Assembly: GCA_964507055.1 (NCBI GenBank)
Contig: CAZDOJ010000001.1
Coordinates: 849,313-913,312, forward strand
Source of the DNA: an uncultured Gammaproteobacteria bacterium
GTDB lineage: Bacteria > Patescibacteriota > Microgenomatia > Levybacterales > UBA12049
Length of the DNA: 64,000 nt
Direction: 5' to 3'
The number at the start of each line of letters is the position of its first letter. Within the stretch, counting starts at the first letter, position 1. The notes beneath the pieces were generated by a model, which saw only the letters and a list, made by a program, of their open reading frames with translations, had not been told where the DNA came from and made no database searches. Below, one piece after another: positions 631-42,157 of the stretch. The position numbers were made by a program, and so were the translations under genes.

Positions 631-1812
631 TTAGACAAGCTCACTATGATGCTTTTGATTATTTTTTAAATAATGTGTTTTCCAAATTACTTTGTTATAG
701 ATAAAGTAGTTTAATGGTATGACAAGAAGTATTATTGTCGGAACCAAAATAACCATAGATGTTGGAACATTGAAACCATACAGATAAATATGTTCGCCTA
801 AATTATGTACAGCTATATAAACTACTAATGTTTGTAAACCGATAGATCCAAGCGAGGCAACATTGAACTTCACAAGTCTCTTAAAAAAGCCACCTTGTTC
901 TGGAATAGATTTAGTGTCACCAAATGTCCAAAGATTATTAAGAATAAAATTAGAAAGAATTGCTGTTTCTCCACCAATCGTTGCAGCTATGAACTGTTCT
1001 ATTCCAAACCGATATAAAATGTATACGGTGAGAAACTGCAAAAAGAATCCTGTGCCACCAATAACGAGAAATTTTATAAATCGCTTTCGTGAATAGATTC
1101 CAAGACGTAAAACAACATAGAATGATTCGAACTGATCTTTCTGACTAATCTTACTTGTCCCCTTTTCACGCTCTAAGAAAACAATTGGAACTTCTTTTAC
1201 CTTTGCTCCAAGTTTTACAACATCATGAAGAATTTGCATTTTATAGGCAAAATTATTCGAGAGAAGATTATCGAGATCAACTTTTTTAAGAATTGATGTT
1301 CTCGAAAGTTTGAAACCAGAGGTCATATCATGGATCGAGAAGTTACCCCAAACAACTCTCGTAAAGAGGTTGCCAAAGACACTCAATACTTTCCGGTCGA
1401 GTCCCCATTCCTTCGGTATGGATCCACCAGGAACATATCGACTACCGATAACATAGTCAGCACCATCGTCCATTGCTTCAATAAGTCGTGGGATGTCATG
1501 AGGATTATGCTGAAAATCTGCATCAAACTCCATGACTGCATCTGCATCCATTTCAACCATGGCATGCTTCATACCACGGACATATGCATAACCTAAACCT
1601 TTTTTGTCTCCAGAAAGAAGTGTTATATTTTTCCACTTTTTTATGAACTGCTTCACTTCATCTGCTGTCCCATCTGGAGATTTATCATCAACGACAAGAA
1701 TTTGCATAGTATGCTTTTTAATTTGCGGAAAAATCTCTTCCTCAAGAAGTGGGATAAGACGGGAAATGTTCACACGCTCATTATACGTGGGTAGGATAAT
1801 AACAATTTTCAT
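631..1812 (-). CDS. Polyprenol-phosphate glycosyltransferase: GT2 (DPM1/GtrB/ArnC-like) catalytic domain fused to a C-terminal GtrA-like 4-TM domain
   Basis: IILPTYNERVNI, VVDDKSPDGT and DADFQHNP motifs are typical of dolichol-P-mannose synthase-like GT2. The C-terminal about 120 aa are hydrophobic and GtrA-like (FIKFLVIGGTGFFLQFL...). Confidence 0.85.
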   Translation of the reverse strand: MKIVIILPTYNERVNISRLIPLLEEEIFPQIKKHTMQILVVDDKSPDGTADEVKQFIKKWKNITLLSGDKKGLGYAYVRGMKHAMVEMDADAVMEFDADFQHNPHDIPRLIEAMDDGADYVIGSRYVPGGSIPKEWGLDRKVLSVFGNLFTRVVWGNFSIHDMTSGFKLSRTSILKKVDLDNLLSNNFAYKMQILHDVVKLGAKVKEVPIVFLEREKGTSKISQKDQFESFYVVLRLGIYSRKRFIKFLVIGGTGFFLQFLTVYILYRFGIEQFIAATIGGETAILSNFILNNLWTFGDTKSIPEQGGFFKRLVKFNVASLGSIGLQTLVVYIAVHNLGEHIYLYGFNVPTSMVILVPTIILLVIPLNYFIYNKVIWKTHYLKNNQKHHSELV

Positions 1813-1956
1813 GCATTTCGAAATGACTGATTTGCCGACTGCTTAATAAGTGTAACATAATTTAACTGCATACTCGTATGATACTAAAATCCATAGATTA
1901 TTGGAAGAGCAAGTGATATTGATAAATCAAGCTATTAGGCAAAATATAGAAGAATT

Positions 1957-2928
<972 letters not shown>

Positions 2929-2944
2929 TTAATATTTCTCTATT

Positions 2945-3892
2945 CTAAACTATATTTCTCCAATAGTCCAGTGTATCTTTCAGCGTTTTTTCAAAAGGAA
3001 TTTCAGCTTCCCAACCTATCGCATCTTTTACTTTTTTTGTGTCTGCAAAAATATCAGGAACATCACTTGGACGCATTTTTGCAGGATCTTGTTCAACTGT
3101 GATCTTTGATTCAGATAAAGCTAAGAGTCCATCAAGAATTTCTTGAGCACTTCTGGATTTTCCCGAACCTGCATTATACACTTCTCCAGGCTCGCCTTTT
3201 TCTAAAAGCATTGGGTATAAGCGAACCATATCTCGAACATCAGTGAAATCACGTTTGGCATCTAAATTTCCGACTCTCATTATTGGTTCTCGTTTTGATT
3301 TTTCTATCTCGGCAATTTGCTTAGCAAAATCTGAAACAACAAATGTGGGAGCTTGTCTTGGACCGACATGATTAAATGGACGGACGCGAACAATAGGAAG
3401 TTTATATGATAACTGATATTGAAATCCGAGGTAATCCTGAGCAATTTTTGAAACTGCATATGGGTTTGCAGGACGATGTGGAGTGTTCTCGCTTACGGGA
3501 AGATCTTCGGGTCGGATAAAACCATAGACTTCCGCTGATGTAACAAGCAGTACTTTTGTCTGCAGCATTTCTTTTTCTTTTAAACTGAGAAAAAGATTAA
3601 GTTGTGAATCGATATTTGCATGAAAGGTATGGATTGGATCTTTTATGCTCTGAGGGACATTTGATTGTGCAGCCAAATGAAAAATCCAGTCAGGTTTTAC
3701 TTCATCGAGTAGTACATCCACGTCTGATTTATTTTGCAAATCAGCTTTAAGAAATTTGAGGCGATCACCTGATCCGGTTGGGGATTCTGATCTATATGTC
3801 CCGTAAATTGTGTAATCACTAGTTGCAAGTAAATGATCAGTTAAGTGACTTCCGACAAAACCTGAGGCTCCAGTAATAAGTACCTTTTTCAT
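2945..3892 (-). CDS. NAD-dependent epimerase/dehydratase; probable GDP-4-dehydro-6-deoxy-D-mannose reductase (Rmd-like)
   Basis: MKKVLITGASGFVGSHL Rossmann motif and 315 aa. It lies immediately 5-prime of gmd in the same operon. The exact substrate is inferred. Confidence 0.6.
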   Translation of the reverse strand: MKKVLITGASGFVGSHLTDHLLATSDYTIYGTYRSESPTGSGDRLKFLKADLQNKSDVDVLLDEVKPDWIFHLAAQSNVPQSIKDPIHTFHANIDSQLNLFLSLKEKEMLQTKVLLVTSAEVYGFIRPEDLPVSENTPHRPANPYAVSKIAQDYLGFQYQLSYKLPIVRVRPFNHVGPRQAPTFVVSDFAKQIAEIEKSKREPIMRVGNLDAKRDFTDVRDMVRLYPMLLEKGEPGEVYNAGSGKSRSAQEILDGLLALSESKITVEQDPAKMRPSDVPDIFADTKKVKDAIGWEAEIPFEKTLKDTLDYWRNIV

Positions 3893-5181
3893 TATCTTCC
3901 TACACCGATGTAATTAAAGCCGAGTTCACGTGCTTCTTCAGGATTATAGAGATTACGAGCGTCAACAATGAGTGGTGAGTTCAGCCATTTTTTAACTTGT
4001 TTAAGCTCCAAATCTTTAAATTCATTCCATTCAGTTAATACAAGCATAGCGTCTGCATCTGTAAGTGCTTCTTTCGCAGACTTAGCAAATGTTATATCAG
4101 AAATAACTTTTGCTGCCGTTTCACGTGCTTCAGGATCATAGGCTGAGATAATTGCTCCGTCATTTTTTAGCAACTCCAAAATATCAATTGCAGGAGCATC
4201 ACGCATATCATCAGTATTTGCTTTAAATGCTAATCCAAGAACTCCAATACGCTTTCCACGAACATCACCTAATGCATGTCTGACCTTCTTCACAATGTCA
4301 CGTTTTGCTTGAGAATTAACTTGTTCTGTTTGATTGAGTAAACCAAAATCATAATCGAAATCTTTTGCAATTGTGATCAAAGCACGAACATCCTTCGGGA
4401 AGCAACTTCCACCGTATCCTGGTCCTGGAGCCAAGAATTTATCCCCGATACGATTATCCATACCAATTCCCTCAAGCACTTTGATACCATCTGCACCGAC
4501 AAGTTCGGATAACTTTGCAATTGCATTTGCATATGAAATTTTCATTGCTAAGAAAGAGTTAGCCGCATATTTGATCAACTCAGCTGTATCAAAATCTGTA
4601 GAAACAACTGGAGCATCTACTGGTTTATGCAAGTCTACTAATAATTTTTTAGCCCGATCACTTTTTGTACCGATAACAACACGATCGGGATGTAACGTAT
4701 CTGAGATTGCACTTCCTTCACGCAAGAATTCTGGAATTGATGCATAATCAAATTCTGCACCCTGAGGCTTATTTTCTTGAATAATTCTACTCACTTTTCT
4801 ATTGGTACCTGATGGTACTGTACTCTTTGTTGCAACGACTGTGTATCCTGACAAATGCTTTGCTATCTTTTCTGCAACACTTAATACAGTTTTCAAATTA
4901 GCATCGCCAGTCTTTGTTGTCGGAGTTCCAACTGCAATAAACACAGCATCTGAATCAGGGATAGCTGGATTATAATCAAGAGTAAAAAGAAGACGTTTTG
5001 CTTTAATATTCTTTTTAACCAGCTCTGTAAGGCCTGGTTCGTAAAACGGAGTAATTCCCTTTTTAAGATCATCAATTTTTTCTTGCGTATGTCCTATGAC
5101 GTAAACTGTATTTCCAAAATCAGCAAAAACAGCTGCTGTTACTAAACCCACGTATCCATGTCCAATGAAAGTTATTGTCAT
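3892..5181 (-). CDS. ugd: UDP-glucose 6-dehydrogenase
   Basis: MTITFIGHGYVGLVTAAVFADFGN... with the GGSCFPKD catalytic Cys motif, 429 aa. Confidence 0.9.
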   Translation of the reverse strand: MTITFIGHGYVGLVTAAVFADFGNTVYVIGHTQEKIDDLKKGITPFYEPGLTELVKKNIKAKRLLFTLDYNPAIPDSDAVFIAVGTPTTKTGDANLKTVLSVAEKIAKHLSGYTVVATKSTVPSGTNRKVSRIIQENKPQGAEFDYASIPEFLREGSAISDTLHPDRVVIGTKSDRAKKLLVDLHKPVDAPVVSTDFDTAELIKYAANSFLAMKISYANAIAKLSELVGADGIKVLEGIGMDNRIGDKFLAPGPGYGGSCFPKDVRALITIAKDFDYDFGLLNQTEQVNSQAKRDIVKKVRHALGDVRGKRIGVLGLAFKANTDDMRDAPAIDILELLKNDGAIISAYDPEARETAAKVISDITFAKSAKEALTDADAMLVLTEWNEFKDLELKQVKKWLNSPLIVDARNLYNPEEARELGFNYIGVGR

Positions 5182-5182
5182 A

Positions 5183-6046
5183 TTATTTCAATTCCAAGAG
5201 GCCTTCTTCGAAGGATTTCATTCTTACCCCAAGTTGATCTATTTTATCATTATTTATTGTTAAGTCAAATGGTCTTGGGGCTTTGCTTGCAAAGTATTCA
5301 GCACGTGTTGTCTTACTAATCAACGATTCATCATAACCAAAATTCTTAGCAATAAGGAGACTTGCATCATATGGAGTTAAACTCTGGCTACCAACAGCAT
5401 GATAAATTCCGGTTGCATTATTTGTTATTAAAGCATCAATAGCTGGAGCAAGATCGTCAATAAATGTTGGAGTAAAGATATGATCAGTAATTGCTTTAAT
5501 TGGTAATCCTTCTGCTAATCTTCCTGCAACTGCTCGAACAAAATCTTTCTTCGCATCAAACGATTTTCGATACGGATAAGCAATTCGCAAAATGATATAG
5601 GGTATTCCTGCTTTTTTAACAACTTCCTCACCTTTTTCCTTGGTCTCAGCATACCAACCGAGTGGTAAAGGTGTATCTTCTTCTGTATATCCACCTTTTG
5701 GTGTATCCTCACCATTAAAGACAAAGTCGGTCGATATATAAATCATTTTTTTATTACCGATCTTACATGCAGTAGCTACATTTTGTGTTCCAGCAACATT
5801 AATCTTATATGCAGGGCCTTCTTCTCCTAATTCTTTATCTTGTTCACAACCATCTACATCTGCTTTTGCTGCAAGATGAATAACTACAGCATGTTCAGTA
5901 TCATTTTTTATAACATCAAGGCTATCAGGATTGGTTATATCAACACCACTTGTCAAACTCAAATCATCAAATGAATATTTGTATTGCAACAATTCAACGA
6001 TTCGTGAACCAACTAAACCTGATCCTCCAATTGTAAATATTTTCAT
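5183..6046 (-). CDS. RmlD-like SDR reductase (dTDP-4-dehydrorhamnose reductase family)
   Basis: MKIFTIGGSGLVGSRIVELL N-terminal Rossmann fold and a YAETK catalytic YxxxK, 287 aa. It sits between ugd and the NUDIX/rfbB genes. Confidence 0.55.
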   Translation of the reverse strand: MKIFTIGGSGLVGSRIVELLQYKYSFDDLSLTSGVDITNPDSLDVIKNDTEHAVVIHLAAKADVDGCEQDKELGEEGPAYKINVAGTQNVATACKIGNKKMIYISTDFVFNGEDTPKGGYTEEDTPLPLGWYAETKEKGEEVVKKAGIPYIILRIAYPYRKSFDAKKDFVRAVAGRLAEGLPIKAITDHIFTPTFIDDLAPAIDALITNNATGIYHAVGSQSLTPYDASLLIAKNFGYDESLISKTTRAEYFASKAPRPFDLTINNDKIDQLGVRMKSFEEGLLELK

Positions 6047-6570
6047 AATTTTCCTTGTTCCAATAACTCCTTATATAATAATATAGTAGCACTATGGCTT
6101 GCTGCAACTATTTTGCCTGAGATAACATTATCAACAGCCTCATCCAATGTCATCTGTATCTGACTAATTTCTTCATCTTCATCCGGATGAGCTTCTCCTT
6201 CAGATAGATCAGTTGCGACAAAAACATAAATCTTGGAATTCATGTTTACTGAAGCTTCCCACTCTGCTATTTGCTTCCAAGATTTTGCAGTGAGACCAGT
6301 TTCCTCCTGCAATTCTCTTTGGGCAGTTGCCATAGGTTCTCCATCTTCTTCCATCGTTCCGGCAACTACTTCCAATAATGTCTTATTAAATGCGTCACGA
6401 TGCTGTGAGATTATATGAAGCTTTCCATCAGGATAGATTGGGAGAATAAACACAGCAGAATTCCTTTCTATAAATTCTTTCGTAAATGTTTTCCCATGCT
6501 TCTCTAAGATAACTTTATTTATGCGGAAATACTTTGCACGGTATGCTTCTTCTTTGGAAATAATCTTCAT
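6043..6570 (-). CDS. NUDIX hydrolase (nucleotide-sugar or ADP-ribose pyrophosphatase type)
   Basis: Nudix box GTMEEDGEPMATAQRELQEETGL. I trimmed the start to ATG 6568-6570 (MKIISKEE...), which overlaps the rfbB stop as ATGA. The track ORF 6043..6633 would overlap rfbB by 67 nt. Confidence 0.75.
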   Translation of the reverse strand: MKIISKEEAYRAKYFRINKVILEKHGKTFTKEFIERNSAVFILPIYPDGKLHIISQHRDAFNKTLLEVVAGTMEEDGEPMATAQRELQEETGLTAKSWKQIAEWEASVNMNSKIYVFVATDLSEGEAHPDEDEEISQIQMTLDEAVDNVISGKIVAASHSATILLYKELLEQGKL

Positions 6571-31176: not shown

Positions 31177-33015
31177 ATGATTAGATTAATTGGTGTTACT
31201 AAAAAAGATAAGGATATACTACTCTACTACGCCTATACAAAAAACGGTAAGAATTTCTTTAAATGTGTCGCAAGTTCCGATGGATTTGAATTTGATGGTA
31301 CGACAAAGTATGTAATAATCACAGACACCAAAGGTCGTGAGGATGCAAAGTATGATTTCAGGAACTTTAATATAACTCCACAAGGTGATAAATTTGCGGT
31401 AGCATTTAAAGCAGGTCCCAAAGCAAAAGACCTTACTTTTGCAGTCTCAGACCAACTACTCCGCTGGACCAAAATCAACAAAGAAGAAACTATTAAAGAA
31501 GCCGGAGCACTTGTACCGGATTATAAGTACAAGCACCGACACGTTCTCTACACAGGCGAACAGAGTATAAAAGTCGCCTACTCGTCTCAGCTTGAGAGTT
31601 GGAAAACAGTCGATAAGCCTGTCCTTGAAAGTCGTGCAGGCTTTTTTGATGATGGAGACCTTGAGATTGCAAAAGTCTTTATCCATGCAGAGCAAATCCT
31701 TGTGATCTACTACTCGAAGTCACAAAAAGGAAAACACACTGTCTATAAAGTCGGTGCTGCATATTTTGATCCAAAGAACCCTGAACATCTTCTTTGGAGA
31801 ACTGAGAAACCTCTTTGGGAACAACCAGCACACCAACATGCAGATCCTTTACAGCCGCTTGATGTCGAAATGACGAAAGAGTACCTCATCCTTTATTGGA
31901 CAGTAAATGATTCCAATATTTATGCAGTAACATGCCCACTTCCAGGTGGAAGTCTCAGAGAAAAGGATATTCAAATCCTTTTGAAGAAGCCTCACCAGAA
32001 TCCAATTTTGAAACCACGTCCTGATCGAGTTTGGGAATCACGAGCAGTATTTAATTCAGCAGCACTGTATGAAGATGGCAAAGTACATTTCCTGTATCGT
32101 GCATTGGGAGATAGTGATCTTTCAGTCATTGGCTATGCAACAAGTTCCGATGGACTGACCATCGATGAGCGGTCCGAAGAACCGATTTATCTTCCACGTG
32201 AACCATTTGAAACCCCTGGCGGACAAGCATTCAAATCATTTGCAGATCACTTCGCATCCGGTGGAGGATATGGTGGAATCGAAGACCCACGTGTCACCAA
32301 AGTTGATGATACAGTCTTTATGACATATGTTGCATTTGATGGATGGAGTCCCCCACGAGCAGCTCTAACATCAATTCCTCTTGAGGATTTTCTCGCAAAG
32401 AATTGGAGCAAATGGAAAAAACCGCAACTCATTTCCCCTCCAGGGATGGTCAACAAGAGTGCAGTTATCTTCCCAGAAAAAATCAATGGAAAATATGTCG
32501 TTATCCATAGAGTGTATCCAAACATTCTGATTGATGTTCTTGATGATTTGAACTTCGATGATAAATATCTTACTGGTCATCATTTCATTCCACCTCGAAA
32601 GGGTCATTGGGACAGTAAAAAGATTGGTGCTGGTGCTCCTCCGATGTTAACGAAAGATGGGTGGCTCCTCATTTACCAATCTGTTGGATACCAAGATCCA
32701 GGTCGATATAAGATCGGTGCTATGGTTTTGGATAAAGACGATCCAACAAAGGTTCTGTATCGAACGAATAATCCAATTGTCTCACCAGACATGCCATATG
32801 ATAATGAAGGTTTTAAAGCAGGCGTTGTCTATCCTTGCGGTGCAGTTATCAAAGATGACAATCTCTTTGTCTATTATGGTGGAGCAGATACAATCGTGGC
32901 AGCCGCTACCGCAAACGTCGATGACTTCCTCGATAAGATGAAGAATCACAAAGAACCAAAGATGAGAAAAGTTAAAGCACCTGTGCTACACTCTAATCAC
33001 ACAGCACATGTGTAA
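31177..33015 (+). CDS. Two-module GH130 (DUF377) glycoside phosphorylase/hydrolase family protein
   Basis: The C-terminal module is an unmistakable GH130 match (GIEDPRV...YVAFDG...FPEKINGKY...DDPTKVLYRT...VYYGGADT). The N-terminal about 270 aa form a divergent second module (LLYYAYTKNG...ASSDGFEF). Confidence 0.75.
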   Translation: MIRLIGVTKKDKDILLYYAYTKNGKNFFKCVASSDGFEFDGTTKYVIITDTKGREDAKYDFRNFNITPQGDKFAVAFKAGPKAKDLTFAVSDQLLRWTKINKEETIKEAGALVPDYKYKHRHVLYTGEQSIKVAYSSQLESWKTVDKPVLESRAGFFDDGDLEIAKVFIHAEQILVIYYSKSQKGKHTVYKVGAAYFDPKNPEHLLWRTEKPLWEQPAHQHADPLQPLDVEMTKEYLILYWTVNDSNIYAVTCPLPGGSLREKDIQILLKKPHQNPILKPRPDRVWESRAVFNSAALYEDGKVHFLYRALGDSDLSVIGYATSSDGLTIDERSEEPIYLPREPFETPGGQAFKSFADHFASGGGYGGIEDPRVTKVDDTVFMTYVAFDGWSPPRAALTSIPLEDFLAKNWSKWKKPQLISPPGMVNKSAVIFPEKINGKYVVIHRVYPNILIDVLDDLNFDDKYLTGHHFIPPRKGHWDSKKIGAGAPPMLTKDGWLLIYQSVGYQDPGRYKIGAMVLDKDDPTKVLYRTNNPIVSPDMPYDNEGFKAGVVYPCGAVIKDDNLFVYYGGADTIVAAATANVDDFLDKMKNHKEPKMRKVKAPVLHSNHTAHV

Positions 33016-33035
33016 AGTAGAAATTCGGGTACAGT

Positions 33036-34985
33036 ATGATAAAACTACAACGCTCTTCAAATAATCCAATCCTCAGCCCTGATCCAAAAAATCCTTGGGA
33101 ACACGATGGAGCGTTCAATGGATGTGTCGCCTATCATGAGGGGACTTATCATATGGTTTACCGTGCTTTATCTTCAGAGAAAAGACAAAACGGTGTCAAC
33201 CTGCGTGTATCCACAGTTGGTTATGCTACAAGTACTGATGGAGTAACTTTTGGAGAACATAGAATGCTCTTTGAACCAACAGAAGATTGGGAAATATATG
33301 GAGTCGAGGATCCACGTATTACATTCCATAACGGCAAATTCTATATATTCTACACAGCACTTTCAGTCTATCCATTTGCAGCCTATGGTATTAAAACCGC
33401 TGTCGCTATTACAACTGATTTTAAGACATTTGAGAAACATCCAGTTAGTACATTCAATGCAAAAGCTCAGGCACTTTTCCCCGAAAAGATTAATGGAAAA
33501 CTTGCGTCCCTCATTACAATAAATACAGATATGCCACCGGCAAAAATATGTGTCGCGACATTTGATAATGAAGCAGATATTTGGTCACCTTATTATTGGC
33601 AGGAATGGTATGACAATGTAAATCAACATTCGCTGCATTTATTGCGTGATCTTCGTGATCAAATAGAACTTGGTGCACCACCAATCAAAACACCAGATGG
33701 ATGGTTTGTCATCTATTCATATATAGGGAATTATCTTTCAAACAATAAGAATTTTGGTATTGAAGCTGTACTTTTGGATTTGGATGATCCGAGGAAAGTT
33801 ATTGCGAGAACTGAGCATTCACTTCTTGATCCTGAAGCGGAGTATGAATTGCATGGAGATGTGCCAAACATTGTTTTTCCTTCGGGTGCACTTGTGAAAG
33901 ATGATGAACTCTTCGTTTATTATGGAGCGGCAGATACACGAGTTGGACTCGCTTCGGCAAAGATCGCTGATATCATAGCTGAAATGAAACCGGCAGAGTC
34001 TGTACCAAATCTTGCACTTTCCGCAGAAGCAAAACAAGCAAATGCCAAACAACCGAAATTCCAACGCTTTGAAGGAAATCCCATTATCAAACCAGCACTT
34101 GAATCAGAATGGCAGGCTTTTGGGACATTTAATCCTGCTGTAGTTTATGAGAAAAACAAATTCCATATCGTCTATAGAGCACAAGCCGTCAAAGGAACGT
34201 CTGTCATGGGATATGCCGTGAGCAGTGATGGCTTCACAATAGATGAGAATTTAGATGAACCAATTTATTTTCCACGTGAATCATTTGAACAAAAGATTCA
34301 TGAAACCGGCAACTCAGGATGTGAAGACCCAAGACTTTCCCGAATTGATGACAAGTATTACATGCTTTATACAGCATATGACGGCGTCAATCCTCCTCGT
34401 GTCGCGATGACTTCAATACCGGTTGAGGACTTTCTTAATCGCAAATGGAATTGGTCACCAGCACAACTCATCTCTCCACCCGAAGTTGATGATAAAGATG
34501 CATGCATAGTGAAAGGTAAGGCTGCTGGAACGTACTTAGCATTCCATCGACTTGGATATGATATTTGGTTGGATATCAGAAAAGATCTTATCTTTAATGA
34601 ATCTAATTGGCTCAAAGGTGAAGTGATAGCACATCCAAGAGCAGATCATTGGGATAATGTGAAGTTGGGTATTAGTGCTCCACCAATTGAAACAGAAAAA
34701 GGTTGGTTATTACTGTATCATGGGGTTTCAGAACCAGGAAATGTTTATAAAGTTGGTGCGATGCTTTTGGACTATGATGATCCAAGAAAGGTTCTTGCTA
34801 GAACCGATGAACCAGTCTTTGAACCCGAAACAGAATACGAAAAAGTCGGAGTCGTTCCAAATGTAGTCTTCCCTTGCGGTGCAGTTGATGTAAACGGAAC
34901 TATCTTTATGTACTATGGCGGTGCTGATGAAGTAATTGGAGTTGCTACTATGAAGGTAAACGATCTACTGAATCTTCTTAAATAA
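33036..34985 (+). CDS. Two-module GH130 (beta-mannoside phosphorylase family) protein
   Basis: Two complete GH130 modules, each with YRA...GYA.S.DG, EDPR, LFPEKINGK, PIKT..GW, LDxDDPRKV and YYGxADT strings. These align with the EDPR, PIKT..GW, LDDP and YYxxxDT strings of a Bacteroides fragilis GH130 enzyme as I recall it. Confidence 0.8.
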   Translation: MIKLQRSSNNPILSPDPKNPWEHDGAFNGCVAYHEGTYHMVYRALSSEKRQNGVNLRVSTVGYATSTDGVTFGEHRMLFEPTEDWEIYGVEDPRITFHNGKFYIFYTALSVYPFAAYGIKTAVAITTDFKTFEKHPVSTFNAKAQALFPEKINGKLASLITINTDMPPAKICVATFDNEADIWSPYYWQEWYDNVNQHSLHLLRDLRDQIELGAPPIKTPDGWFVIYSYIGNYLSNNKNFGIEAVLLDLDDPRKVIARTEHSLLDPEAEYELHGDVPNIVFPSGALVKDDELFVYYGAADTRVGLASAKIADIIAEMKPAESVPNLALSAEAKQANAKQPKFQRFEGNPIIKPALESEWQAFGTFNPAVVYEKNKFHIVYRAQAVKGTSVMGYAVSSDGFTIDENLDEPIYFPRESFEQKIHETGNSGCEDPRLSRIDDKYYMLYTAYDGVNPPRVAMTSIPVEDFLNRKWNWSPAQLISPPEVDDKDACIVKGKAAGTYLAFHRLGYDIWLDIRKDLIFNESNWLKGEVIAHPRADHWDNVKLGISAPPIETEKGWLLLYHGVSEPGNVYKVGAMLLDYDDPRKVLARTDEPVFEPETEYEKVGVVPNVVFPCGAVDVNGTIFMYYGGADEVIGVATMKVNDLLNLLK

Positions 34986-34986
34986 A

Positions 34987-36657
34987 TTACAATTCGTAGT
35001 GCTCGTATGATTTCGTAATTACAGGTAAATATGTCTTTTCAAAATAATCCCGCAGCATACGCGTCGCACTAAATTGGTGCAGAATAAGTTCACGACCATC
35101 CCGTTGCATCATATGCCACTTTGTTTGGTCCTGATCGTAATAAGTTGGAATAACTTGTTGCTCGAGTATATCGAGAAGACTTGTTTGGATAGTATCACTA
35201 TCAAAAGACCATCCAATCCTGTTCACGTCAATTTCATCCATCCATCCATCTTTGGTGCTTAATGGTAAAACTCCATTGAGACTCGCTTTCATACCACTTG
35301 TCCCACATGCTTCTGAACCGACGACTGGAGTATTGAGCCAAACGTCTGATCCGCTGATCATTAATTTTGCCAATGTTTTATTGTAGTCTGCCAAATAAAC
35401 CACGCTTCCTTTTAACTCATTGTCGAGCATCTTTTGCAAAGTATTAATAAGCTCTCGCCCTTCATCATCTGCCTGATGAGAGATACCAGCCATTACAATG
35501 CGTACAGGTCGATCTGCATTTTTTGCAATTGAAACAAACCGCTCCAGATCTCCATATAAAGCTAGCGGTCTCTTATAACGAACCATTCTTCTTGCCCAAC
35601 CCAAAAGTAATTCATTTTCATCCCAATGCTGGCCAGTTTCTTTTGCAATATAACTAAGCAAAGCTTTTTTACTCGTGTCATGATATGCCATACTTTCCCA
35701 ACTTGGTGTATGAATGCCGTTTGTAACTGGTTCCCATACAAAATCCGGCCAAAACTTGCTTGCTTCTTTGACGTGCAACTTACTCACTCCGTTGATTTTT
35801 CCTGCCAATCGCATTGCAAAGACTGCAAGGTAAAAATCATGTGAATCCTCAATCGTTCCTAAATCGGAAATCTTTGTGACAGGAATTTCTAGTTGACTAG
35901 CATACTTACCAAGCATCATATGAATCAACTCATTACTAAAGATATCGTTGCCAGCTGGAACTAATGTATGATTGGTAAAAACCACATGATGGGAAGCCAT
36001 TTTTGATGCCTCTTCAAAAGAGATGTTTCGCTTCTGCATCTCATGTCTTATGATTTCCAAGACAAGTAAAGCGGAGTGACCTTCATTCATGTGATAAAGT
36101 GAAGGTTGTACACCAAGTGATTCAAGTAATCGAAATCCACCAATTCCCAAAATCATTTCTTGTTTGAGTCGAACTTGCTTATCCGCGTCATACAGTTTGT
36201 AACCAATTGCACGGTCTTCAGGAGAATTCTCAGGAACATTGGTATCAAGTAAGTACAGTGGAATAGAATTATTTTGCCAAACCCAACATCGGACAAACAC
36301 ATCATGGTCTCCTACTGGAACTGCTATTATGAGCGGCTTTTGGTCTTTCTTATCTAAAACAGGTTGTAAGCCTTGATTTTCAGGTGTTGGGATAATATGC
36401 TCACTATCCTTATCATGATGTGGGTCAAAACCATATCGACTTTGATAATATAAACCTACAGAAACAGCAGGAATATGCCTATCTGCAAGTTCTTTGATAA
36501 AGTCCCCTGCAAGAATCCCAAGCCCACCTGCATACGTTGGAAGCTTATCTGAGAGAGCATATTCAATACTAAAATACGCTAGGGGTTTTTTCTGCAAAAG
36601 TTGATAGGGCTTAGTTGTTCGAAATTCTTCAAACCAAATTTCGTGTTCATTAACCAT
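34987..36657 (-). CDS. glgP: Alpha-glucan phosphorylase (GT35, short maltodextrin/glycogen phosphorylase type)
   Basis: LPTYAGGLGILAGDF, NEGHSAL, and about 555 aa, typical of the compact GT35 subfamily. Confidence 0.85.
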   Translation of the reverse strand: MVNEHEIWFEEFRTTKPYQLLQKKPLAYFSIEYALSDKLPTYAGGLGILAGDFIKELADRHIPAVSVGLYYQSRYGFDPHHDKDSEHIIPTPENQGLQPVLDKKDQKPLIIAVPVGDHDVFVRCWVWQNNSIPLYLLDTNVPENSPEDRAIGYKLYDADKQVRLKQEMILGIGGFRLLESLGVQPSLYHMNEGHSALLVLEIIRHEMQKRNISFEEASKMASHHVVFTNHTLVPAGNDIFSNELIHMMLGKYASQLEIPVTKISDLGTIEDSHDFYLAVFAMRLAGKINGVSKLHVKEASKFWPDFVWEPVTNGIHTPSWESMAYHDTSKKALLSYIAKETGQHWDENELLLGWARRMVRYKRPLALYGDLERFVSIAKNADRPVRIVMAGISHQADDEGRELINTLQKMLDNELKGSVVYLADYNKTLAKLMISGSDVWLNTPVVGSEACGTSGMKASLNGVLPLSTKDGWMDEIDVNRIGWSFDSDTIQTSLLDILEQQVIPTYYDQDQTKWHMMQRDGRELILHQFSATRMLRDYFEKTYLPVITKSYEHYEL

Positions 36658-36666
36658 TACTTTATT

Positions 36667-38226
36667 TTAAGCTAATTGCTCCGGAGATGCTACTGTCGCG
36701 ATTGTTTCTTTTCTTTTTGCAGCGACCCTTTTATACCAGCTGTCGTATTGTGTCGCAGCATGGCTCCATGAAAAATCACTTTCAAGACAATTTTTAACAA
36801 GCATTTTCCATAATTTCGGATGATTATAGATAATCAATGACTGCATGATCGTACCATATAAAGACCATGCGTCTTTATTTTTGAAAGAGAACCCATTCCC
36901 TTCTTTTGTTGCAGGATTATAATCAGTGATAATATCACTTAATCCCCCTGTTCTTCGTATAATTGGGACACAACCGTATCGTAATGCTTCTAAAGCAATG
37001 ATACCGCCTGGTTCAAAAAGGCTAGGAATAAGCATCATGTCAGCACCTGCGAATATCTTCTTTGGTAATCGGAAATCTGGACGCAAATGCAAACCTACTT
37101 GTTCAGGAAATGTCTTTTGTAAGACTGTTAATTCCAAACGATAGCGTTCTTCTCCACTTCCAAGAAAAACAATTTGTACATCAGGTCGTTCACTCAATAA
37201 ATGAGGTAACGCTTCAAGTACCATATCTAATCCTTTTTGTTTTACCATTCGTCCACTTAACGCAAGCAGCGGTCGATGAAAATCCGGTGTAAGACCGAAA
37301 AGCTTTTGTAGTTCTCTTTTATTTTCTTCTCGTGCATGGACAAAAGAATTGGCATTAAAGTTTTTCTTAATAGACTTATCTGTATGTGGATTAAATTTTT
37401 CTGTATCTAGTCCATTAAGAATTCCTGTCAACCGTCCTCGTACTTCTTGTAAAATTTCATCTAAACCTTCAGCGTATTCAGGAGTCATAACTTCGACTGC
37501 ATGTGTTGGACTAACAGTATTGATAGCATCAGCATTCAACAAACCTCTTTTTAATGGATTTTGTAACTGAAGTACTGGATTTGTCAGAGCAGCAGGTAAC
37601 GGTTTACCTGTATCGAATTCTTCTTTCGGCGAATAACGAAAATCATAGTTACCTTGAAGAGAAAAATTATGAACTGTATAGACAATTGGTGTTTTACGGA
37701 AGATATCTTTATATCGAGGATGTCGGCGAGCTAAATCAAGGAAATAGCCTGTATGCCAATCGTGAGCATGAATAATATCAGGCTTCCACCCATCATTCAT
37801 GCCTGAGTTTGTTGAAAGCTTAACTTGTTGCTGCATCATCCATTCAAGACATGCTTTGGATAAAAGTGCAAAGCGAGTGTGATCATCTTTATATCCATAC
37901 ACATTTGCACGGAGTTCGTAATATTCTTTATTCTCAAGAAAGTATGCATGGATTTTAGAATTTTTATCTCGATATGATTTTACATTACAAATAATTGGTC
38001 GATCTTCTATGTCCATATCCTCAGGCACTTTCAGATCAGTATATTCCATTTGTAATTTCCAATTGCCTTCGATTGTTGTTTCATCCATCGCACCATATTT
38101 CGGAGTAAAAATGCGGACATCATGTCCTAATTTGCGGAGCTCCTTAGGGAGAAAATACATGAATTGACTCAACCCCCCAACTGAAACAAAAGGAGCAACT
38201 TCAGCAGCAAGTAAGAGGATATTCAT
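36667..38226 (-). CDS. glgA: Glycogen/starch synthase (GT5)
   Basis: MNILLLAAEVAPFVSVGGL (KxGGL-like), a GT-B fold C-terminus, and 519 aa. Confidence 0.8.
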   Translation of the reverse strand: MNILLLAAEVAPFVSVGGLSQFMYFLPKELRKLGHDVRIFTPKYGAMDETTIEGNWKLQMEYTDLKVPEDMDIEDRPIICNVKSYRDKNSKIHAYFLENKEYYELRANVYGYKDDHTRFALLSKACLEWMMQQQVKLSTNSGMNDGWKPDIIHAHDWHTGYFLDLARRHPRYKDIFRKTPIVYTVHNFSLQGNYDFRYSPKEEFDTGKPLPAALTNPVLQLQNPLKRGLLNADAINTVSPTHAVEVMTPEYAEGLDEILQEVRGRLTGILNGLDTEKFNPHTDKSIKKNFNANSFVHAREENKRELQKLFGLTPDFHRPLLALSGRMVKQKGLDMVLEALPHLLSERPDVQIVFLGSGEERYRLELTVLQKTFPEQVGLHLRPDFRLPKKIFAGADMMLIPSLFEPGGIIALEALRYGCVPIIRRTGGLSDIITDYNPATKEGNGFSFKNKDAWSLYGTIMQSLIIYNHPKLWKMLVKNCLESDFSWSHAATQYDSWYKRVAAKRKETIATVASPEQLA

Positions 38227-38293: not shown

Positions 38294-38860
38294 TTATAGA
38301 GGCTTTCTTTTAAGCTTTAACAAATAGCCAAGAAATGTTGCGGTCGGGTGAATAATAATCCACATAAAGATAATCAGTAAATACTGATACCACTCCAATG
38401 GAATGTAAAAGAAAGTAAATACAATACCACCCAATATAAAATCAATTTGATCAAAAGGAACCCAACTTCGTCCAGGTTGAATATTCTGTCTCCTTTTGAA
38501 GAAACTTTTCACCGCATCTCCAGCTAACGCTCCAAATCCAAGAAGAAAACCCAATAGAATCGGATTTACTTCGTTATAATTTATGGGCAGGAAATCACGC
38601 TGCCAACTGATTGTGTTGTAAAAGAAAATTTGTAAGTAGACGCCAATAATTGCTACAATTGTTCCAAGTAAAAAGCCACGAATTGTTTTATGACTTCCAA
38701 GAATTCTTTTTCCTTGGAATTTTAATCCAAAATCTACAGGATAATTATATGGTCGCAAAAACTTAATTTTTCCAGAACCAAACGCCACGACATTTGCGAG
38801 TCCTGCGGGTCCAAAAAACCAAAATGCAAAGAAGAATTCTTTAAGAAGCTGTTCAACCAT
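38294..38860 (-). CDS. CarS-like membrane CTP:lipid cytidylyltransferase (CDP-archaeol synthase family, DUF46)
   Basis: 188 aa with about 5 TM helices. GSHKTIRGFLLG (G..KT.RG) and AGDAVKSFFKRR...GRSWVPFDQIDFILGG match the CarS signature (GD..SF.KRR...FDQ.D). It is translationally coupled (8-nt overlap) to the upstream PHP gene. Confidence 0.65.
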   Translation of the reverse strand: MVEQLLKEFFFAFWFFGPAGLANVVAFGSGKIKFLRPYNYPVDFGLKFQGKRILGSHKTIRGFLLGTIVAIIGVYLQIFFYNTISWQRDFLPINYNEVNPILLGFLLGFGALAGDAVKSFFKRRQNIQPGRSWVPFDQIDFILGGIVFTFFYIPLEWYQYLLIIFMWIIIHPTATFLGYLLKLKRKPL

Positions 38861-39521
38861 TTGTTAATATTATCTTATTTTTAATACGATTTACCAATGG
38901 GCAAAGTAACGTATACATTGGTGCTCTCTTGCGGGAAAGCTCAGGGTTAATCAAAAGTCGTTTCAAAGATTTTTGTGTCGGCATTTCAGCGACAATACTA
39001 TATGTTTTTCCCATTCCCATAATACAATGAGAATCACTACTAGCTGCCTGAGATTTTTGATGCAGATTGGCAAATGCTAATGATTCTTCTGGCTTTCCTC
39101 TGACCTGCCCTCGTCCGTTAAAGACTTCTACAATATCTATTTCATCTTTTATCTTATCAAGACTTGATTGCTGTAACCCTTTTCTAAATATTTCATATGG
39201 ATGCGGTATATAGACAAGTGCATCCTGTTGTCTGATTCGGTTAACAGTCTCTACTGCATCTAATCCAGCGGGTATTGTTTCTTGCAAAAACAATCCTATG
39301 ATTTCTCCCTCCGTCGTTGTGATCTCTTCACCGATAATGATCTTATCACCATGTTTTTGTTGCATAATTCGAGCAAAACTAGTTTCATTATGATCTGTTA
39401 TAGCAATGCAATCGAGTCGTTCGGAAGAAAGTAATTTCTCATATTCCTCTGCAGTAATACCTCCATCATGTGATATGATTGAGTGAGAATGTAGATCAAC
39501 TTTATACTGTGTTTTATCCAT
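38853..39521 (-). CDS. PHP-domain metal-dependent phosphoesterase
   Basis: VDLHSHSIISHDG at the N-terminus (PHP motif I), ITDHNE, and HPYE. 222 aa. Confidence 0.75.
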   Translation of the reverse strand: MDKTQYKVDLHSHSIISHDGGITAEEYEKLLSSERLDCIAITDHNETSFARIMQQKHGDKIIIGEEITTTEGEIIGLFLQETIPAGLDAVETVNRIRQQDALVYIPHPYEIFRKGLQQSSLDKIKDEIDIVEVFNGRGQVRGKPEESLAFANLHQKSQAASSDSHCIMGMGKTYSIVAEMPTQKSLKRLLINPELSRKRAPMYTLLCPLVNRIKNKIILTNG

Positions 39522-40107
39522 GCTAAGTCAAAGTAAACAATCAGTCGAAAAAGTCCTCGAGCCACTAATTGAACCATTATCAAAGGTTAACCCAAACGTG
39601 CTTACTCTCTTAGGTAGTATACCACCTCTGGTATTCTTTGTCGCTATTATTAACCATATATATTGGCTGGCAATAGTTGCTTTCATTGGAAATCTCTTTG
39701 ATCTTCTCGATGGTATGGTTGCTAGAAAATATAAAAAAGTGACAGCATTTGGAGGCTTTTTGGATTCCACACTTGATCGAGTTGGAGATTTTCTGATCAT
39801 TACTTCATTTTCATTTGCAGGAATCGTTCGTTGGGAATTAACTATTCCATTACTACTTTTTGCATTCCTCACAAGTTATATTAGAAGTCGTGGAGAATTA
39901 GCAAAACCATCAGTAAGTTTTGCAGTAGGAATTGTTGAGAGAACAGAGCGTTTGATTGTTGTTGTTCTGGCATTAATCCTTCACATGATCTTTCCAGATT
40001 ACTCATTTTCAGGACTTAATGTGATGGAAGTAAGCTTTTTATTCTTAGCAATTTTATCCTTTTACACAGTTTTGCAGAGAATTATGTATGCCTACCGAAA
40101 ATTATAA
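39520..40107 (+). CDS. CDP-alcohol phosphatidyltransferase (archaetidyl/phosphatidyl-inositol-phosphate synthase-like)
   Basis: Complete D-x2-D-G-x2-A-R-x8-G-x3-D-x3-D signature (DLLDGMVARKYKKVTAFGGFLDSTLDRVGD). 195 aa with 5-6 TM helices. It is convergent with MIPS. Confidence 0.85.
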   Translation: MLSQSKQSVEKVLEPLIEPLSKVNPNVLTLLGSIPPLVFFVAIINHIYWLAIVAFIGNLFDLLDGMVARKYKKVTAFGGFLDSTLDRVGDFLIITSFSFAGIVRWELTIPLLLFAFLTSYIRSRGELAKPSVSFAVGIVERTERLIVVVLALILHMIFPDYSFSGLNVMEVSFLFLAILSFYTVLQRIMYAYRKL

Positions 40108-40143: not shown

Positions 40144-41238
40144 CTAATCAATCTTGTACTTTTTGATAAACTCTTCAACTTTTTCTCGTGCTATTGAATC
40201 TGTATATTGTTTGGGTGGAGACTTCATGAAATATGATGATGGCTCAACCAAAGGACCTCCTACATTATTGTCTAAAGCAAGTTTACAACATCTGATTGCA
40301 TCAATTACAACTCCCGCTGAATTTGGTGAGTCCTCCACAGAAAGACGTGCTTCAATATGCATTGGCACATCTCCAAAATGACGACTTTCAATCCGTATAA
40401 ATGCCACTTTATTATCTTTCATCCATTCAACGTAATCACTTGGGCCTATGTGTACATTTTCAGGAAGAATCGAGTCATCATGTAAATCAATTTGAGAAGT
40501 GACAGATTGTGTTTTGGATATTTCTTTGGACTTTAGTCTTTTTCTTTCGAGCATGTTTTGAAAGTCAGTATTGCCGCCAACATTTAATTGATACGTTCTA
40601 TCAATTGGCATCCCTCGATCTAAGAATAAATTAGTTAAAACTCTGTGAACAATTGTCGCTCCAACTTGTGCTTTTATATCATCACCAACAATTGGTACAT
40701 TTGCTTCTGTAAATTTTTTGCTCCATTTTTTGTCTGTTGCTATAAATACAGGCATACAATTAACCATTCCTACTTTTGCACGTAAGCAAATATCAGCCCA
40801 ATACTCTACTGCTTTTTGACTACCTACAGGAAGATAATTCACAAGGATTTCAGCACCAGAATCTTTTAAGATTTTTACTGGATCTGGAATTTTATTCTTG
40901 GAAACTTTGATAACATCTTTGACATACTCACCAATTCCATCCATTACCTCAGCATTTTTAACAGTAACACCTAGTTTTTGAACATTCGCGAAAATCGCGG
41001 TATTATTTGGATGTGCATAAATTGCCTCTCCCAAATCTTTTCCAACTTTTGTTTCATTGACATCGAAGGCAGCAACAACTTCAATATCACTAATAGTGTA
41101 GCCACCAAAATTCGTATGCATCAAACCAAATATCCGGTCATCTTCCTTAGCATTTTTATAATAAGTTAGTCCTTGAATAAGTGAAGATGCACAGTTGCCA
41201 ATGCCTACAACCGCAATTTTTATTTTTTTATTCCTCAT
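40144..41238 (-). CDS. ino1: myo-Inositol-1-phosphate synthase (inositol-3-phosphate synthase, short prokaryotic form)
   Basis: IKIAVVGIGNCASSLIQG NAD-binding N-terminus, 364 aa, matching compact archaeal/bacterial MIPS. Confidence 0.85.
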   Translation of the reverse strand: MRNKKIKIAVVGIGNCASSLIQGLTYYKNAKEDDRIFGLMHTNFGGYTISDIEVVAAFDVNETKVGKDLGEAIYAHPNNTAIFANVQKLGVTVKNAEVMDGIGEYVKDVIKVSKNKIPDPVKILKDSGAEILVNYLPVGSQKAVEYWADICLRAKVGMVNCMPVFIATDKKWSKKFTEANVPIVGDDIKAQVGATIVHRVLTNLFLDRGMPIDRTYQLNVGGNTDFQNMLERKRLKSKEISKTQSVTSQIDLHDDSILPENVHIGPSDYVEWMKDNKVAFIRIESRHFGDVPMHIEARLSVEDSPNSAGVVIDAIRCCKLALDNNVGGPLVEPSSYFMKSPPKQYTDSIAREKVEEFIKKYKID

Positions 41239-41308: not shown

Positions 41309-42157
41309 ATGATAGAAGAATTACACAGATTTATACTATTGGTTGAGAAGCGAAATGTAACGAAGGTCGCAGATAAGGTTTTTATCACACAGTCTGCAAT
41401 GTCTCAATCAATCAAACGACTTGAGAAAGAACTTGGAGTAAAGTTAGTCATTCAGAAAGGTAAGCAGTTAGATATTACGAGTGATGGTATGGCAGTTGCA
41501 GAACTCGGGACAAAAATCCTTCAACTCTGGGAACGTGCAAAAGATCCTCAAAAGCGTATAGGCGAAAAACAAATAATATCTCTTGGCCTTTTTGATAATG
41601 CAGCACTTAAATTAGGTGAGTATTTTCAAGATTCAATTATAAAAAATGATTTCAAAATAGAGCTAACGATTAATGCATCAGGAAAAATTTTCTCACAGCT
41701 TATGCTTGGCATATATGATCTTGCAATCTGTGTCGTAGATAATAAAAATTCCCTTCCGAAAACAGTACATCATATAAAAAGCTTCACCGAAGAATTGATT
41801 CCTGTTTCATCAAAAAAATTTAAGGGTAAGCTTGAAGATATCCCATTTATTTTATATAACATTGGTTCACATACAAGAGAACATATTGATGAGATATTTG
41901 AAAAAAATCAAATCAAGCCAAATGTCTTTGCAGAATCAACGAGTACTACTTTTATGAAAGAACTTGCTCTTCTTGGAAGCGGTATCGCTTTATTACCAAA
42001 GAATTCTGTTTCTGCTGAATTGTCACAAGGACTTCTAAAAAAATACTCTTTGCCTTTTAAGTTTTATCGCGAATATGGTCTTTATATTTCGACACAAAGT
42101 CTACTTCAAAAGGACCATCAGATTATTAAGGATATAAGTAAGATATTGGGGAAATAG
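41309..42157 (+). CDS. LysR-family transcriptional regulator
   Basis: N-terminal wHTH (VTKVADKVFITQSAMSQSIKRLEKELGVKL) plus a C-terminal substrate-binding domain. It is divergent from ino1 across a 70-bp intergenic region. Confidence 0.8.
   Translation: MIEELHRFILLVEKRNVTKVADKVFITQSAMSQSIKRLEKELGVKLVIQKGKQLDITSDGMAVAELGTKILQLWERAKDPQKRIGEKQIISLGLFDNAALKLGEYFQDSIIKNDFKIELTINASGKIFSQLMLGIYDLAICVVDNKNSLPKTVHHIKSFTEELIPVSSKKFKGKLEDIPFILYNIGSHTREHIDEIFEKNQIKPNVFAESTSTTFMKELALLGSGIALLPKNSVSAELSQGLLKKYSLPFKFYREYGLYISTQSLLQKDHQIIKDISKILGK

Follow-up and report, generated by a model that had tools for sequence, protein, structure and literature searches.

The DNA analyzed here is a 64-kb window (64,000 nucleotides, 38% G+C) of contig CAZDOJ010000001.1, and its subject is a small gene for a standalone PHP-domain protein that sits among genes for inositol-lipid synthesis. 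The protein is a candidate for the phosphatase that converts phosphatidylinositol phosphate (PIP) to phosphatidylinositol (PI). Its ORF (open reading frame) starts with ATG and encodes 222 residues beginning with MDKTQYKVDLHSHSIISHDGG. It contains the motifs D9-L-H-S-H-S-I-I-S-H-D-G20, D43-H-N-E46 and H107-P108, as an earlier sequence-only reading of the same DNA had described. That reading had also reported an 8-nt overlap with a CarS-like gene, and the PHP stop codon and the CarS-like ATG do share exactly 8 nt, the octamer ATGGTTGA. The PHP gene is a genuine conserved gene with 937 homologs, the best 120 of which encode proteins of about 220 residues that are 54-100% identical to the query. 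Named close relatives belong to Candidatus Levybacteria and other Patescibacteria, and the JGI annotation labels relatives of the protein "TrpH". The housekeeping genes of the window are ordinary bacterial ones (SecA, SerRS, GroEL/ES, LepA, ribosomal proteins, MurJ), and neither tRNA genes nor Rfam families at gathering threshold were found across the whole 64 kb.

Four further genes make up the cluster (Table 1). The CarS-like protein scores 91.4 bits against the Pfam CarS-like family (cut-off 22) and 125.3 bits against the NCBIfam CDP-archaeol synthase, below the cut-off of 148. Judging from the overlap of the two reading frames, its gene may be translationally coupled to the PHP gene. On the other side, the ATGs of the PHP gene and of a CDP-alcohol phosphatidyltransferase gene overlap head-to-head by 2 nt (CATG, 39519-39522). 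The same CATG overlap occurs in eight other loci (L004, L025, L026, L061, L071, L075, L080 and L096), and the spacer in other orthologous loci measures 10-140 nt. Start codons arranged in this way imply that the promoter of each gene must sit within the coding sequence of the other. The sigma-70-like match listed in Table 1 falls within the coding sequence of the transferase, some 125 nt ahead of the PHP start; promoter and terminator scans of the region did not rise above chance. Automatic gene callers shorten the transferase to 169 residues, and the longer form is real, since M1, K6 and E10 are invariant in 17 orthologs. The myo-inositol-1-phosphate synthase (MIPS) gene is convergent with the transferase gene, and its product scores 121.6 bits against Pfam Inos-1-P_synth and 485 bits against NCBIfam TIGR03450 (cut-off 638). 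A LysR gene adjoins MIPS in L004-L009, L022, L023, L028 and L029 as well, and is likely the regulator of the cluster. With this strand layout, the genes form a compact cluster that comprises three or more transcription units instead of one operon. The sequence-only reading had placed the PHP gene within a lipid operon: the PHP and CarS-like genes are indeed co-directional, with PHP between the CarS-like and transferase genes, but the transferase gene is divergent and MIPS convergent, so that "cluster" is the better word.

Table 1. Features of the inositol-lipid gene cluster in the 64-kb window and of the archaeal operon compared with it (AF2, AlphaFold2; AIPS and PIPS, archaetidylinositol phosphate and phosphatidylinositol phosphate synthase)
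Feature	Position	Strand	Basis
CarS-like integral-membrane CTP:lipid cytidylyltransferase, proposed maker of the CDP-lipid donor	38294..38860	-	Pfam, NCBIfam, synteny
Standalone PHP-fold metal-dependent phosphoesterase, candidate PIP phosphatase	38853..39521	-	ORF, Pfam PHP, AF2, Foldseek, invariant ligands, synteny
C-terminal helix of the PHP protein, residues 202-220, APMYTLLCPLVNRIKNKIIL, putative in-plane membrane anchor	38862..38918	-	AF2 model
AIPS/PIPS-like CDP-alcohol phosphatidyltransferase, 195 aa, proposed maker of the lipid-inositol-phosphate	39520..40107	+	NCBIfam, motif, binding residues
Sigma-70-like TTGCCA-16-AATAAT, 10/12, possible PHP-CarS promoter	39646..39673	-	Weak; number of matches not above shuffled expectation
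MIPS, myo-inositol-1-phosphate (inositol-3-phosphate) synthase, head-group supplier	40144..41238	-	Pfam, NCBIfam
LysR-family regulator, divergent from MIPS	41309..42157	+	Pfam HTH_1 and LysR_substrate
Archaeal PIG-L/DUF4838/PHP/AIPS operon	L118 5074-6579; L131 4097-6579; L140-L142 ~1800-6470

In the parts of the window that carry annotation (~4-24 kb and 29-64 kb), no gene for a PgpA- or PAP2-type lipid phosphatase is visible, and the sole other phosphohydrolase-type gene listed encodes a NUDIX hydrolase near 6 kb. Histidine-biosynthesis genes were not recognized among the neighbors of the PHP gene. Alpha-glucan phosphorylase and glycogen synthase genes follow the CarS-like gene directly downstream in the same orientation, and two tandem genes for large GH130-family proteins (612 and 649 aa) lie beside them, the whole stretch covering 31177-38226. 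This linkage of GlgA/GlgP to the lipid genes is kept in the closest relatives only (L004-L006, L022).

Membership of the window protein in the PHP superfamily is marginal by Pfam alone (PF02811, 27.2 bits against a gathering threshold of 26.4); its relatives also match PHP_C (PF13263). An AlphaFold2 model built on 27 orthologs has a mean predicted local distance difference test (pLDDT) score of 93.5. In a Foldseek search of the PDB, all of the top 31 matches were PHP proteins or PHP domains, the best of them being BVU_3505 (3e38), TM0559 (2anu, TM-score 0.69) and RNase AM (7ug9) at E 1e-10 to 1e-12. After 3e38 and 2anu the ranking runs through RNase AM, PsfC and BAD_1165. The model confirms the predicted PHP fold, a distorted (beta/alpha)7 barrel, which can be regarded as secure. 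Nine residues are invariant across the 27 orthologs (H11, H13, D19, H44, E65, E66, H107, D163 and H165). Aligned with RNase AM, the protein keeps eight of the nine canonical metal ligands, the ninth, a His in RNase AM, being replaced by Glu73. RNase AM proteins are also the best sequence-level matches in the PDB (9etk, E 4e-6; 7ug9, E 2e-4), with aligned DLHxHS, DG, TDH, E, HP and SDxH motifs. Sequence and predicted structure together point to an active-looking PHP phosphoesterase without assigning its substrate.

The known families of similar proteins were rejected as identities for it. A histidinol phosphatase of the HisJ/HisK type is argued against by the lack of a hisJ_fam match at E <=0.01, and HisK (4gyf) aligns merely at E 0.03 with a TM-score of 0.39. 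The equivalog models for RNase AM/RNase RNM (NF047791) and for the pAp or nucleoside-bisphosphate phosphatase (NF041577) give 20.7 bits against a cut-off of 375 and 21.5 bits against 400, respectively. TrpH-type proteins span 275-293 residues compared with the 222 of the window protein, whose alignment to 9etk and 7ug9 skips their insertion of about 60 residues. The PHP domains attached to polymerases (Pol III alpha, PolC, PolX) are set apart by the standalone nature of the window protein, and nearly all representatives of its family measure 205-260 residues. No PgpA family match was obtained in Pfam or NCBIfam, so that it is not a PgpA-type PIP phosphatase either. Among the 150 best representatives, fusions of PHP to the transferase, CarS or MIPS are absent; the multi-domain proteins found there are fusions to a family 4 glycosyltransferase (GT4::PHP), one PHP::methyltransferase, one PHP::DUF4258 and probable chimeras.

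The adjacent transferase carries the motif D61xxDGxxAR...GxxxD82xxxD86. It scores 151.5 bits against the NCBIfam archaetidylinositol phosphate (AIP) synthase (cut-off 180) and 110 bits against the PIP synthase (cut-off 170). A profile of the transferases from candidate phyla radiation (CPR) bacteria finds its best match in the PIP synthase structures of Mycobacterium tuberculosis and Renibacterium (E 2e-21). In the mycobacterial enzyme MtPgsA1, the phosphate of inositol phosphate is bound by R94, S132, K135, R137, R152, R155 and R195 (PMC6506517). The aligned equivalents in the window transferase are R87, S119, R122, R124, R141, R144 and R187, and all of them except R124 are invariant across the CPR transferase family. 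Since all of the inositol-phosphate-binding residues are kept, a lipid-inositol-phosphate is the expected product, and a phosphatase would be needed to finish the pathway. The lipid moiety is presumably diacyl rather than archaeol. In the PgsA1 numbering, the PIP of bacteria corresponds to phosphatidylinositol 3-phosphate (PMC6506517).

Pairing of the PHP gene with this transferase gene is conserved. A scan of one genome per species, in which the window proteins were located by tblastn, gave 26 loci whose PHP products are 46-91% identical to the query. Of the 25 loci whose sequence reaches far enough upstream, 23 have the transferase gene next to PHP in divergent orientation; of those that reach far enough downstream, all 19 have CarS on that side, on the PHP strand and no more than 3 kb away. 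MIPS and LysR stand alongside the transferase in roughly one in three of the 26. A gene of ~303 codons intervenes between PHP and CarS in 14 of these species-level loci and encodes a YegS/DgkB-type lipid kinase (Pfam DAGK_cat and YegS_C). It is found at L007-L011, L014, L015, L018, L020-L022, L025, L029 and many of L057-L092, and is missing from this position in the window and in L004-L006, L013, L019, L023, L024, L027 and L052. A search of the entire 64-kb window for a kinase of this type found none. The presence of a lipid kinase within the PHP-CarS operon marks a lipid pathway, and suggests diacylglycerol salvage feeding the CarS-like enzyme. Several metagenome-assembled genome records with a Patescibacteria-type cluster are labeled Gammaproteobacteria, Acidiferrales, Lysobacterales, Limnocylindrales or Sulfotelmatobacter; these contigs (L004 (OZ246394.1), L008, L009, L014, L018, L028 and L029) are probably mis-binned or mislabeled.

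The linkage was also tested in reverse, with metagenome contigs fetched by using the transferase as query. A PHP gene adjoins the transferase in all 17 loci where the latter is at least 56% identical to that of the window, in 11 of 24 at 43-55% identity, and in just one of 17 below 43%. At 43% identity or more and a G+C fraction of 0.33-0.44, the adjacency holds in every locus but one (L114), where frameshifted PHP fragments flank the transferase. Conservation of PHP beside a CDP-alcohol transferase and MIPS, which the sequence-only reading had proposed as a check, is therefore borne out for the transferase and extends to CarS, with MIPS present in part of the loci. Nor is the protein a generic PHP enzyme that lacks co-occurrence with lipid genes, the outcome that the same reading had set against itself: other PHP families were rejected and the linkage is conserved.

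The C-terminal helix offers a hint of where the protein may act. Tails (the last 25 residues) of 127 family representatives of 205-260 aa were compared with those of control ORFs of the window. Their median net charge is +5 versus +1 (p 3e-18), and their hydrophobic moment 0.53 versus 0.38. In sequence and in the model, such a cationic amphipathic tail would fit an in-plane anchor on an anionic membrane.

On this evidence, the window protein is judged somewhat more probably than otherwise to be a peripheral-membrane metal-dependent phosphomonoesterase that converts PIP to PI. The sequence-only reading had nominated it as the inositol-lipid-phosphate phosphatase, and that candidacy is supported by the linkage in three lineages and by the transferase residues. 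We infer its substrate, its membrane association, the diacyl nature of the lipid and the order of steps. In the proposed route, MIPS would supply inositol-1-phosphate. A lipid precursor, probably host-derived diacylglycerol, would be phosphorylated, in most relatives by the YegS/DgkB-type kinase, and the CarS-like enzyme would then turn the phosphorylated lipid into a CDP-lipid. From this donor and inositol-1-phosphate, the transferase would form PIP and cytidine monophosphate (CMP). The remaining monoester of PIP would be hydrolyzed at the trinuclear metal site of the PHP protein to give PI, with the cationic amphipathic C-terminal helix positioning the enzyme at the membrane surface. The CPR module would probably turn scavenged diacylglycerol and self-made inositol phosphate into an inositol lipid.

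The same order of genes admits a reading in which the PHP enzyme acts upstream, in lipid salvage, as a phospholipase-C-like or lyso-/other phospholipid hydrolase that frees host diacylglycerol for re-activation by the kinase and CarS. CPR bacteria presumably depend on host lipids, many CPR loci keep the order PHP, lipid kinase, CarS, and the family tail suggests membrane binding. Diester cleavage is also within the reach of PHP enzymes such as RNase AM and the cyclic phosphate dihydrolase, both of which occur among the weak NCBIfam matches. However, it is the transferase and not the kinase that is the most constant neighbor of PHP, and the window and several other loci have no kinase gene between PHP and CarS. 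Such an enzyme would in addition leave PIP without a phosphatase, and the PHP genes of Solirubrobacterales and of the archaeal operon, described below, accompany PIPS or AIPS without a kinase or CarS. A role in salvage is therefore considered unlikely.

Association of a PHP domain with inositol-lipid genes recurs outside the CPR. In Solirubrobacterales, the PHP domain forms the C-terminal half of proteins of 630-680 residues whose N-terminal half is a GT4 glycosyltransferase. Over its full length, this domain shares 30-32% identity with the query, and the best local tblastn segments reach 37-41%. The fusion is abundant, as both domains are present in all 120 matches listed. Gene order in L035, L037, L040, L134 and L135 is PAP2_3, PIPS, MIPS and GT4::PHP; the fusion gene directly follows MIPS in these loci, but in L134 three genes intervene. 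The PAP2_3 protein bears a weak resemblance to the phosphoinositol-dihydroceramide synthase of Bacteroides. Both PDB sequence matches of the GT4 half below E 1e-3 are PimA (E 1.2e-12), and MshA is absent from its matches below E 0.01. PimA is a mannosyltransferase that uses PI. Fusion of a PimA-like GT4, which consumes PI, to a PHP domain that is a candidate PI producer constitutes a Rosetta-stone-type argument.

This fusion also bears on a second alternative, in which the PHP protein is a soluble inositol-phosphate phosphatase that acts on inositol-1-phosphate to yield inositol, or on a glycosyl-inositol-phosphate as MshA2 does, and not on a lipid. Linkage to MIPS would suit such an enzyme, and the position of the GT4 fusion directly after MIPS would suit a glycosyltransferase working on a phosphorylated acceptor with a phosphatase to follow. 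One GT4::PHP fusion belongs to a polysaccharide cluster, and MshA2 is still known as an activity only. Yet the fixed partners in CPR loci are the transferase and CarS, with MIPS adjacent in only part of them, and an inositol-1-phosphate phosphatase would destroy the substrate of the inositol-phosphate-using transferase encoded in the same cluster. Sequence matches of the GT4 half point to PimA, MshA being absent below E 0.01, and a tail that is cationic and amphipathic hints at a substrate in the membrane. A soluble substrate is accordingly rather improbable, and PIP remains the preferred one.

The third occurrence is archaeal. The loci L118, L131 and L140-L142 have ~60% G+C, and the last three also contain Eha-type hydrogenase genes, which indicates that the organism is probably a methanogen. 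Their operon consists of genes for a PIG-L-family deacetylase, a DUF4838 protein (~780 aa), a HisJ-like PHP protein and an AIPS. The AIPS passes the NCBIfam cut-off, with 185 bits against 180. Located 26-32 nt upstream of the AIPS gene on the same strand, the PHP gene encodes a protein of 284-301 residues with the motif series IDLHLH, LLDHSE, GLEV, GCHMN, FHPFH and GSDYH. The protein shows a weak full-length match to the HisJ family (NCBIfam hisJ_fam, E 1e-4). Its model (pLDDT 93.2) resembles histidinol phosphate phosphatases most closely (2yxo at E 2e-7, 3dcp), together with YcdX. By its gene content, the operon resembles a pathway to glucosaminyl-archaetidylinositol that includes a candidate AIP phosphatase of its own.

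Several observations weigh against assigning PIP to the window protein, or against extending the assignment to its relatives. The nearest solved structures are uncharacterized PHP proteins and RNase AM, so the substrate is not indicated by them. In an hhalign comparison, the CPR PHP profile aligns with the archaeal family only over the N-terminal HxH...DH region (E 0.016); the archaeal protein is merely superfamily-related to the CPR one, and supports the chemistry rather than orthology. Twelve of the 13 loci that have no PHP at 43-55% transferase identity belong to a clade with 49-58% G+C, and the thirteenth is L114. In this GC-rich clade of AIPS-like genes, 47-55% identical (L085-L090, L093, L094, L097-L101), the retrieved flanks contain neither PHP nor CarS nor MIPS, and several of the loci adjoin pgk, pyk and tpi. 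L113 and L116 have CarS and AIPS with no PHP, and L017 and L021 have PHP with no adjacent AIPS. In L113 (3241-6573), where a DgkA-type kinase replaces the YegS/DgkB type, the kinase and CarS are followed by a protein of 323 aa in the usual place of PHP, encoded divergently from the transferase. This protein matches no Pfam or NCBIfam family, and hhalign against the CPR PHP profile gave nothing; it may be a non-homologous replacement of PHP.

The wider subfamily is heterogeneous, with 6018 proteins at E <=0.001 and 459 at E <=1e-30. In one member (P0300) CarS comes next. Remoter members stand in non-lipid settings, namely in a polysaccharide cluster, beside xseAB and beside AIRS/DHODH, with P0281 and P0339 among those in unrelated contexts. 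Standalone PHP genes of Actinomycetota (Streptosporangiales) have no GT4 or lipid neighbor; an APH-like kinase gene, an acyl-CoA-dehydrogenase-like gene and ABC transporter genes surround them instead. The member in the polysaccharide-type cluster is a low-GC GT4::PHP fusion (L137, 7001-8839), which has no inositol genes around it and lies amid five GT4 genes, an asparagine synthase, a DegT aminotransferase and polysaccharide deacetylases. The GT4::PHP architecture is thus not restricted to inositol lipids, nor is the PHP subfamily uniformly tied to them. A rough neighbor-joining tree places the CPR and Actinomycetota clades on separate branches with members from non-lipid contexts between them, which implies either two origins of the PIP-synthase linkage inside the subfamily or its repeated loss from clusters.

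The cationic tail could bind nucleic acid instead of a membrane. CarS releases pyrophosphate and the transferase releases CMP, and these by-products would give an enzyme of nucleotides a place in the cluster. A pAp or nucleotide phosphatase, an RNase AM-like exonuclease or a remover of CMP or pyrophosphate, only indirectly linked to lipids, would match the RNase AM hits (9etk, 7ug9), the "TrpH" labels, an RNA-binding basic tail and the subfamily member beside the exonuclease VII genes, but is very unlikely given the ~21 bits against equivalog cut-offs of 375-400, the lack of the ~60-aa TrpH insertion, the head-to-head adjacency to a lipid gene kept across 46-91% identity, which a housekeeping nuclease would hardly maintain, and a fusion to a PimA-like glycosyltransferase that is not expected of a nuclease.

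With PIP-to-PI conversion retained as the preferred function, a broader proposal can be made more tentatively, and we regard it as possible rather than probable. PHP-superfamily proteins may supply the missing PIP/AIP phosphatase activity in several lineages of prokaryotes, after three or more recruitments: as the standalone CPR clade, as the PimA-like GT4::PHP proteins of Solirubrobacterales and as the HisJ-like PHP of a methanogen-like archaeon. In the same proposal, the CPR cluster (PHP, lipid kinase, CarS-like, AIPS-like, MIPS and LysR) would be a self-contained module that leads from scavenged diacylglycerol to PI by archaeal-type enzymes, in bacteria otherwise unable to make lipids. If true, a PHP-type enzyme would be a second solution to the step from PIP to PI, unrelated to the PgpA type, and each of three lineages would offer concrete candidate genes. 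How bacteria as reduced as the CPR might make an inositol lipid out of scavenged lipid would then be accounted for, and the GT4::PHP fusion would physically link dephosphorylation of PIP to the first glycosylation of PI. No ortholog is shown in Mycobacterium, so the mycobacterial case is not solved by the PHP candidate alone.

The phosphatase of the two-step prokaryotic route to PI or archaetidylinositol, missing ever since that route was defined, was called unidentified in Actinobacteria and Archaea by a 2022 review and by the 2019 PgsA1 structure paper (PMC6506517), and for mycothiol synthesis the analogous phosphatase, MshA2, is likewise known only as an activity. The sequence-only reading had stated that the step has no firmly assigned enzyme in most organisms. 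Papers up to 2022 agree for Actinobacteria and Archaea, but an exception, and the only enzyme identified for the step, is the PgpA-type BT_1525 of Bacteroides (PMC9246714). A prior assignment of a PHP enzyme to the PIP/AIP phosphatase step was not found in the literature covered, which excludes most subscription journals.

Among known PHP enzymes, HisJ and HisK share with the window protein the fold and metal-dependent phosphomonoester hydrolysis, and the archaeal AIPS-linked protein is closest to them. The window protein differs in being shorter and in having neither a hisJ_fam match nor recognized histidine-gene neighbors. The TrpH/YciV type, which includes RNase AM and the 3',5'-nucleoside bisphosphate phosphatase Cv1693 (COG0613), provides the best sequence-level matches of solved structure and aligned motifs. 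In contrast to this type, the window protein has no insertion domain, has Glu73 in place of a His, and possesses an extra basic amphipathic C-terminal helix and a lipid-gene context. The closest folds are two structural genomics targets of similar size, TM0559 (2anu) and BVU_3505 (3e38), with a TM-score of ~0.69 and 18-20% identity. The eukaryotic phosphatases of phosphatidylinositol 3-phosphate, Sac1 and the myotubularins, carry out the same net chemistry. They rely on cysteine-based CX5R catalysis, have folds unrelated to PHP and serve a signaling rather than a biosynthetic role.

The nearest functional counterpart is BT_1525, the PgpA-family PIP phosphatase of Bacteroides thetaiotaomicron, in whose knockout PIP accumulates (Heaver et al. 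2022, PMC9246714). The proposed reaction, PIP to PI, is the same, and in both cases PIP synthase and MIPS genes lie in the same cluster. In Solirubrobacterales, the order PAP2_3, PIPS, MIPS and GT4::PHP parallels BT_1522, BT_1523, BT_1526 and BT_1525, with PHP in the place of the PgpA-type enzyme. The two proteins belong to unrelated families, the window protein being a PHP barrel with a multinuclear metal site, and the role of BT_1525 is genetically proven whereas that of the PHP protein is read from sequence and model. What is new here is a PHP phosphoesterase with a new proposed substrate, a candidate non-orthologous alternative to the PgpA-type PIP phosphatase.

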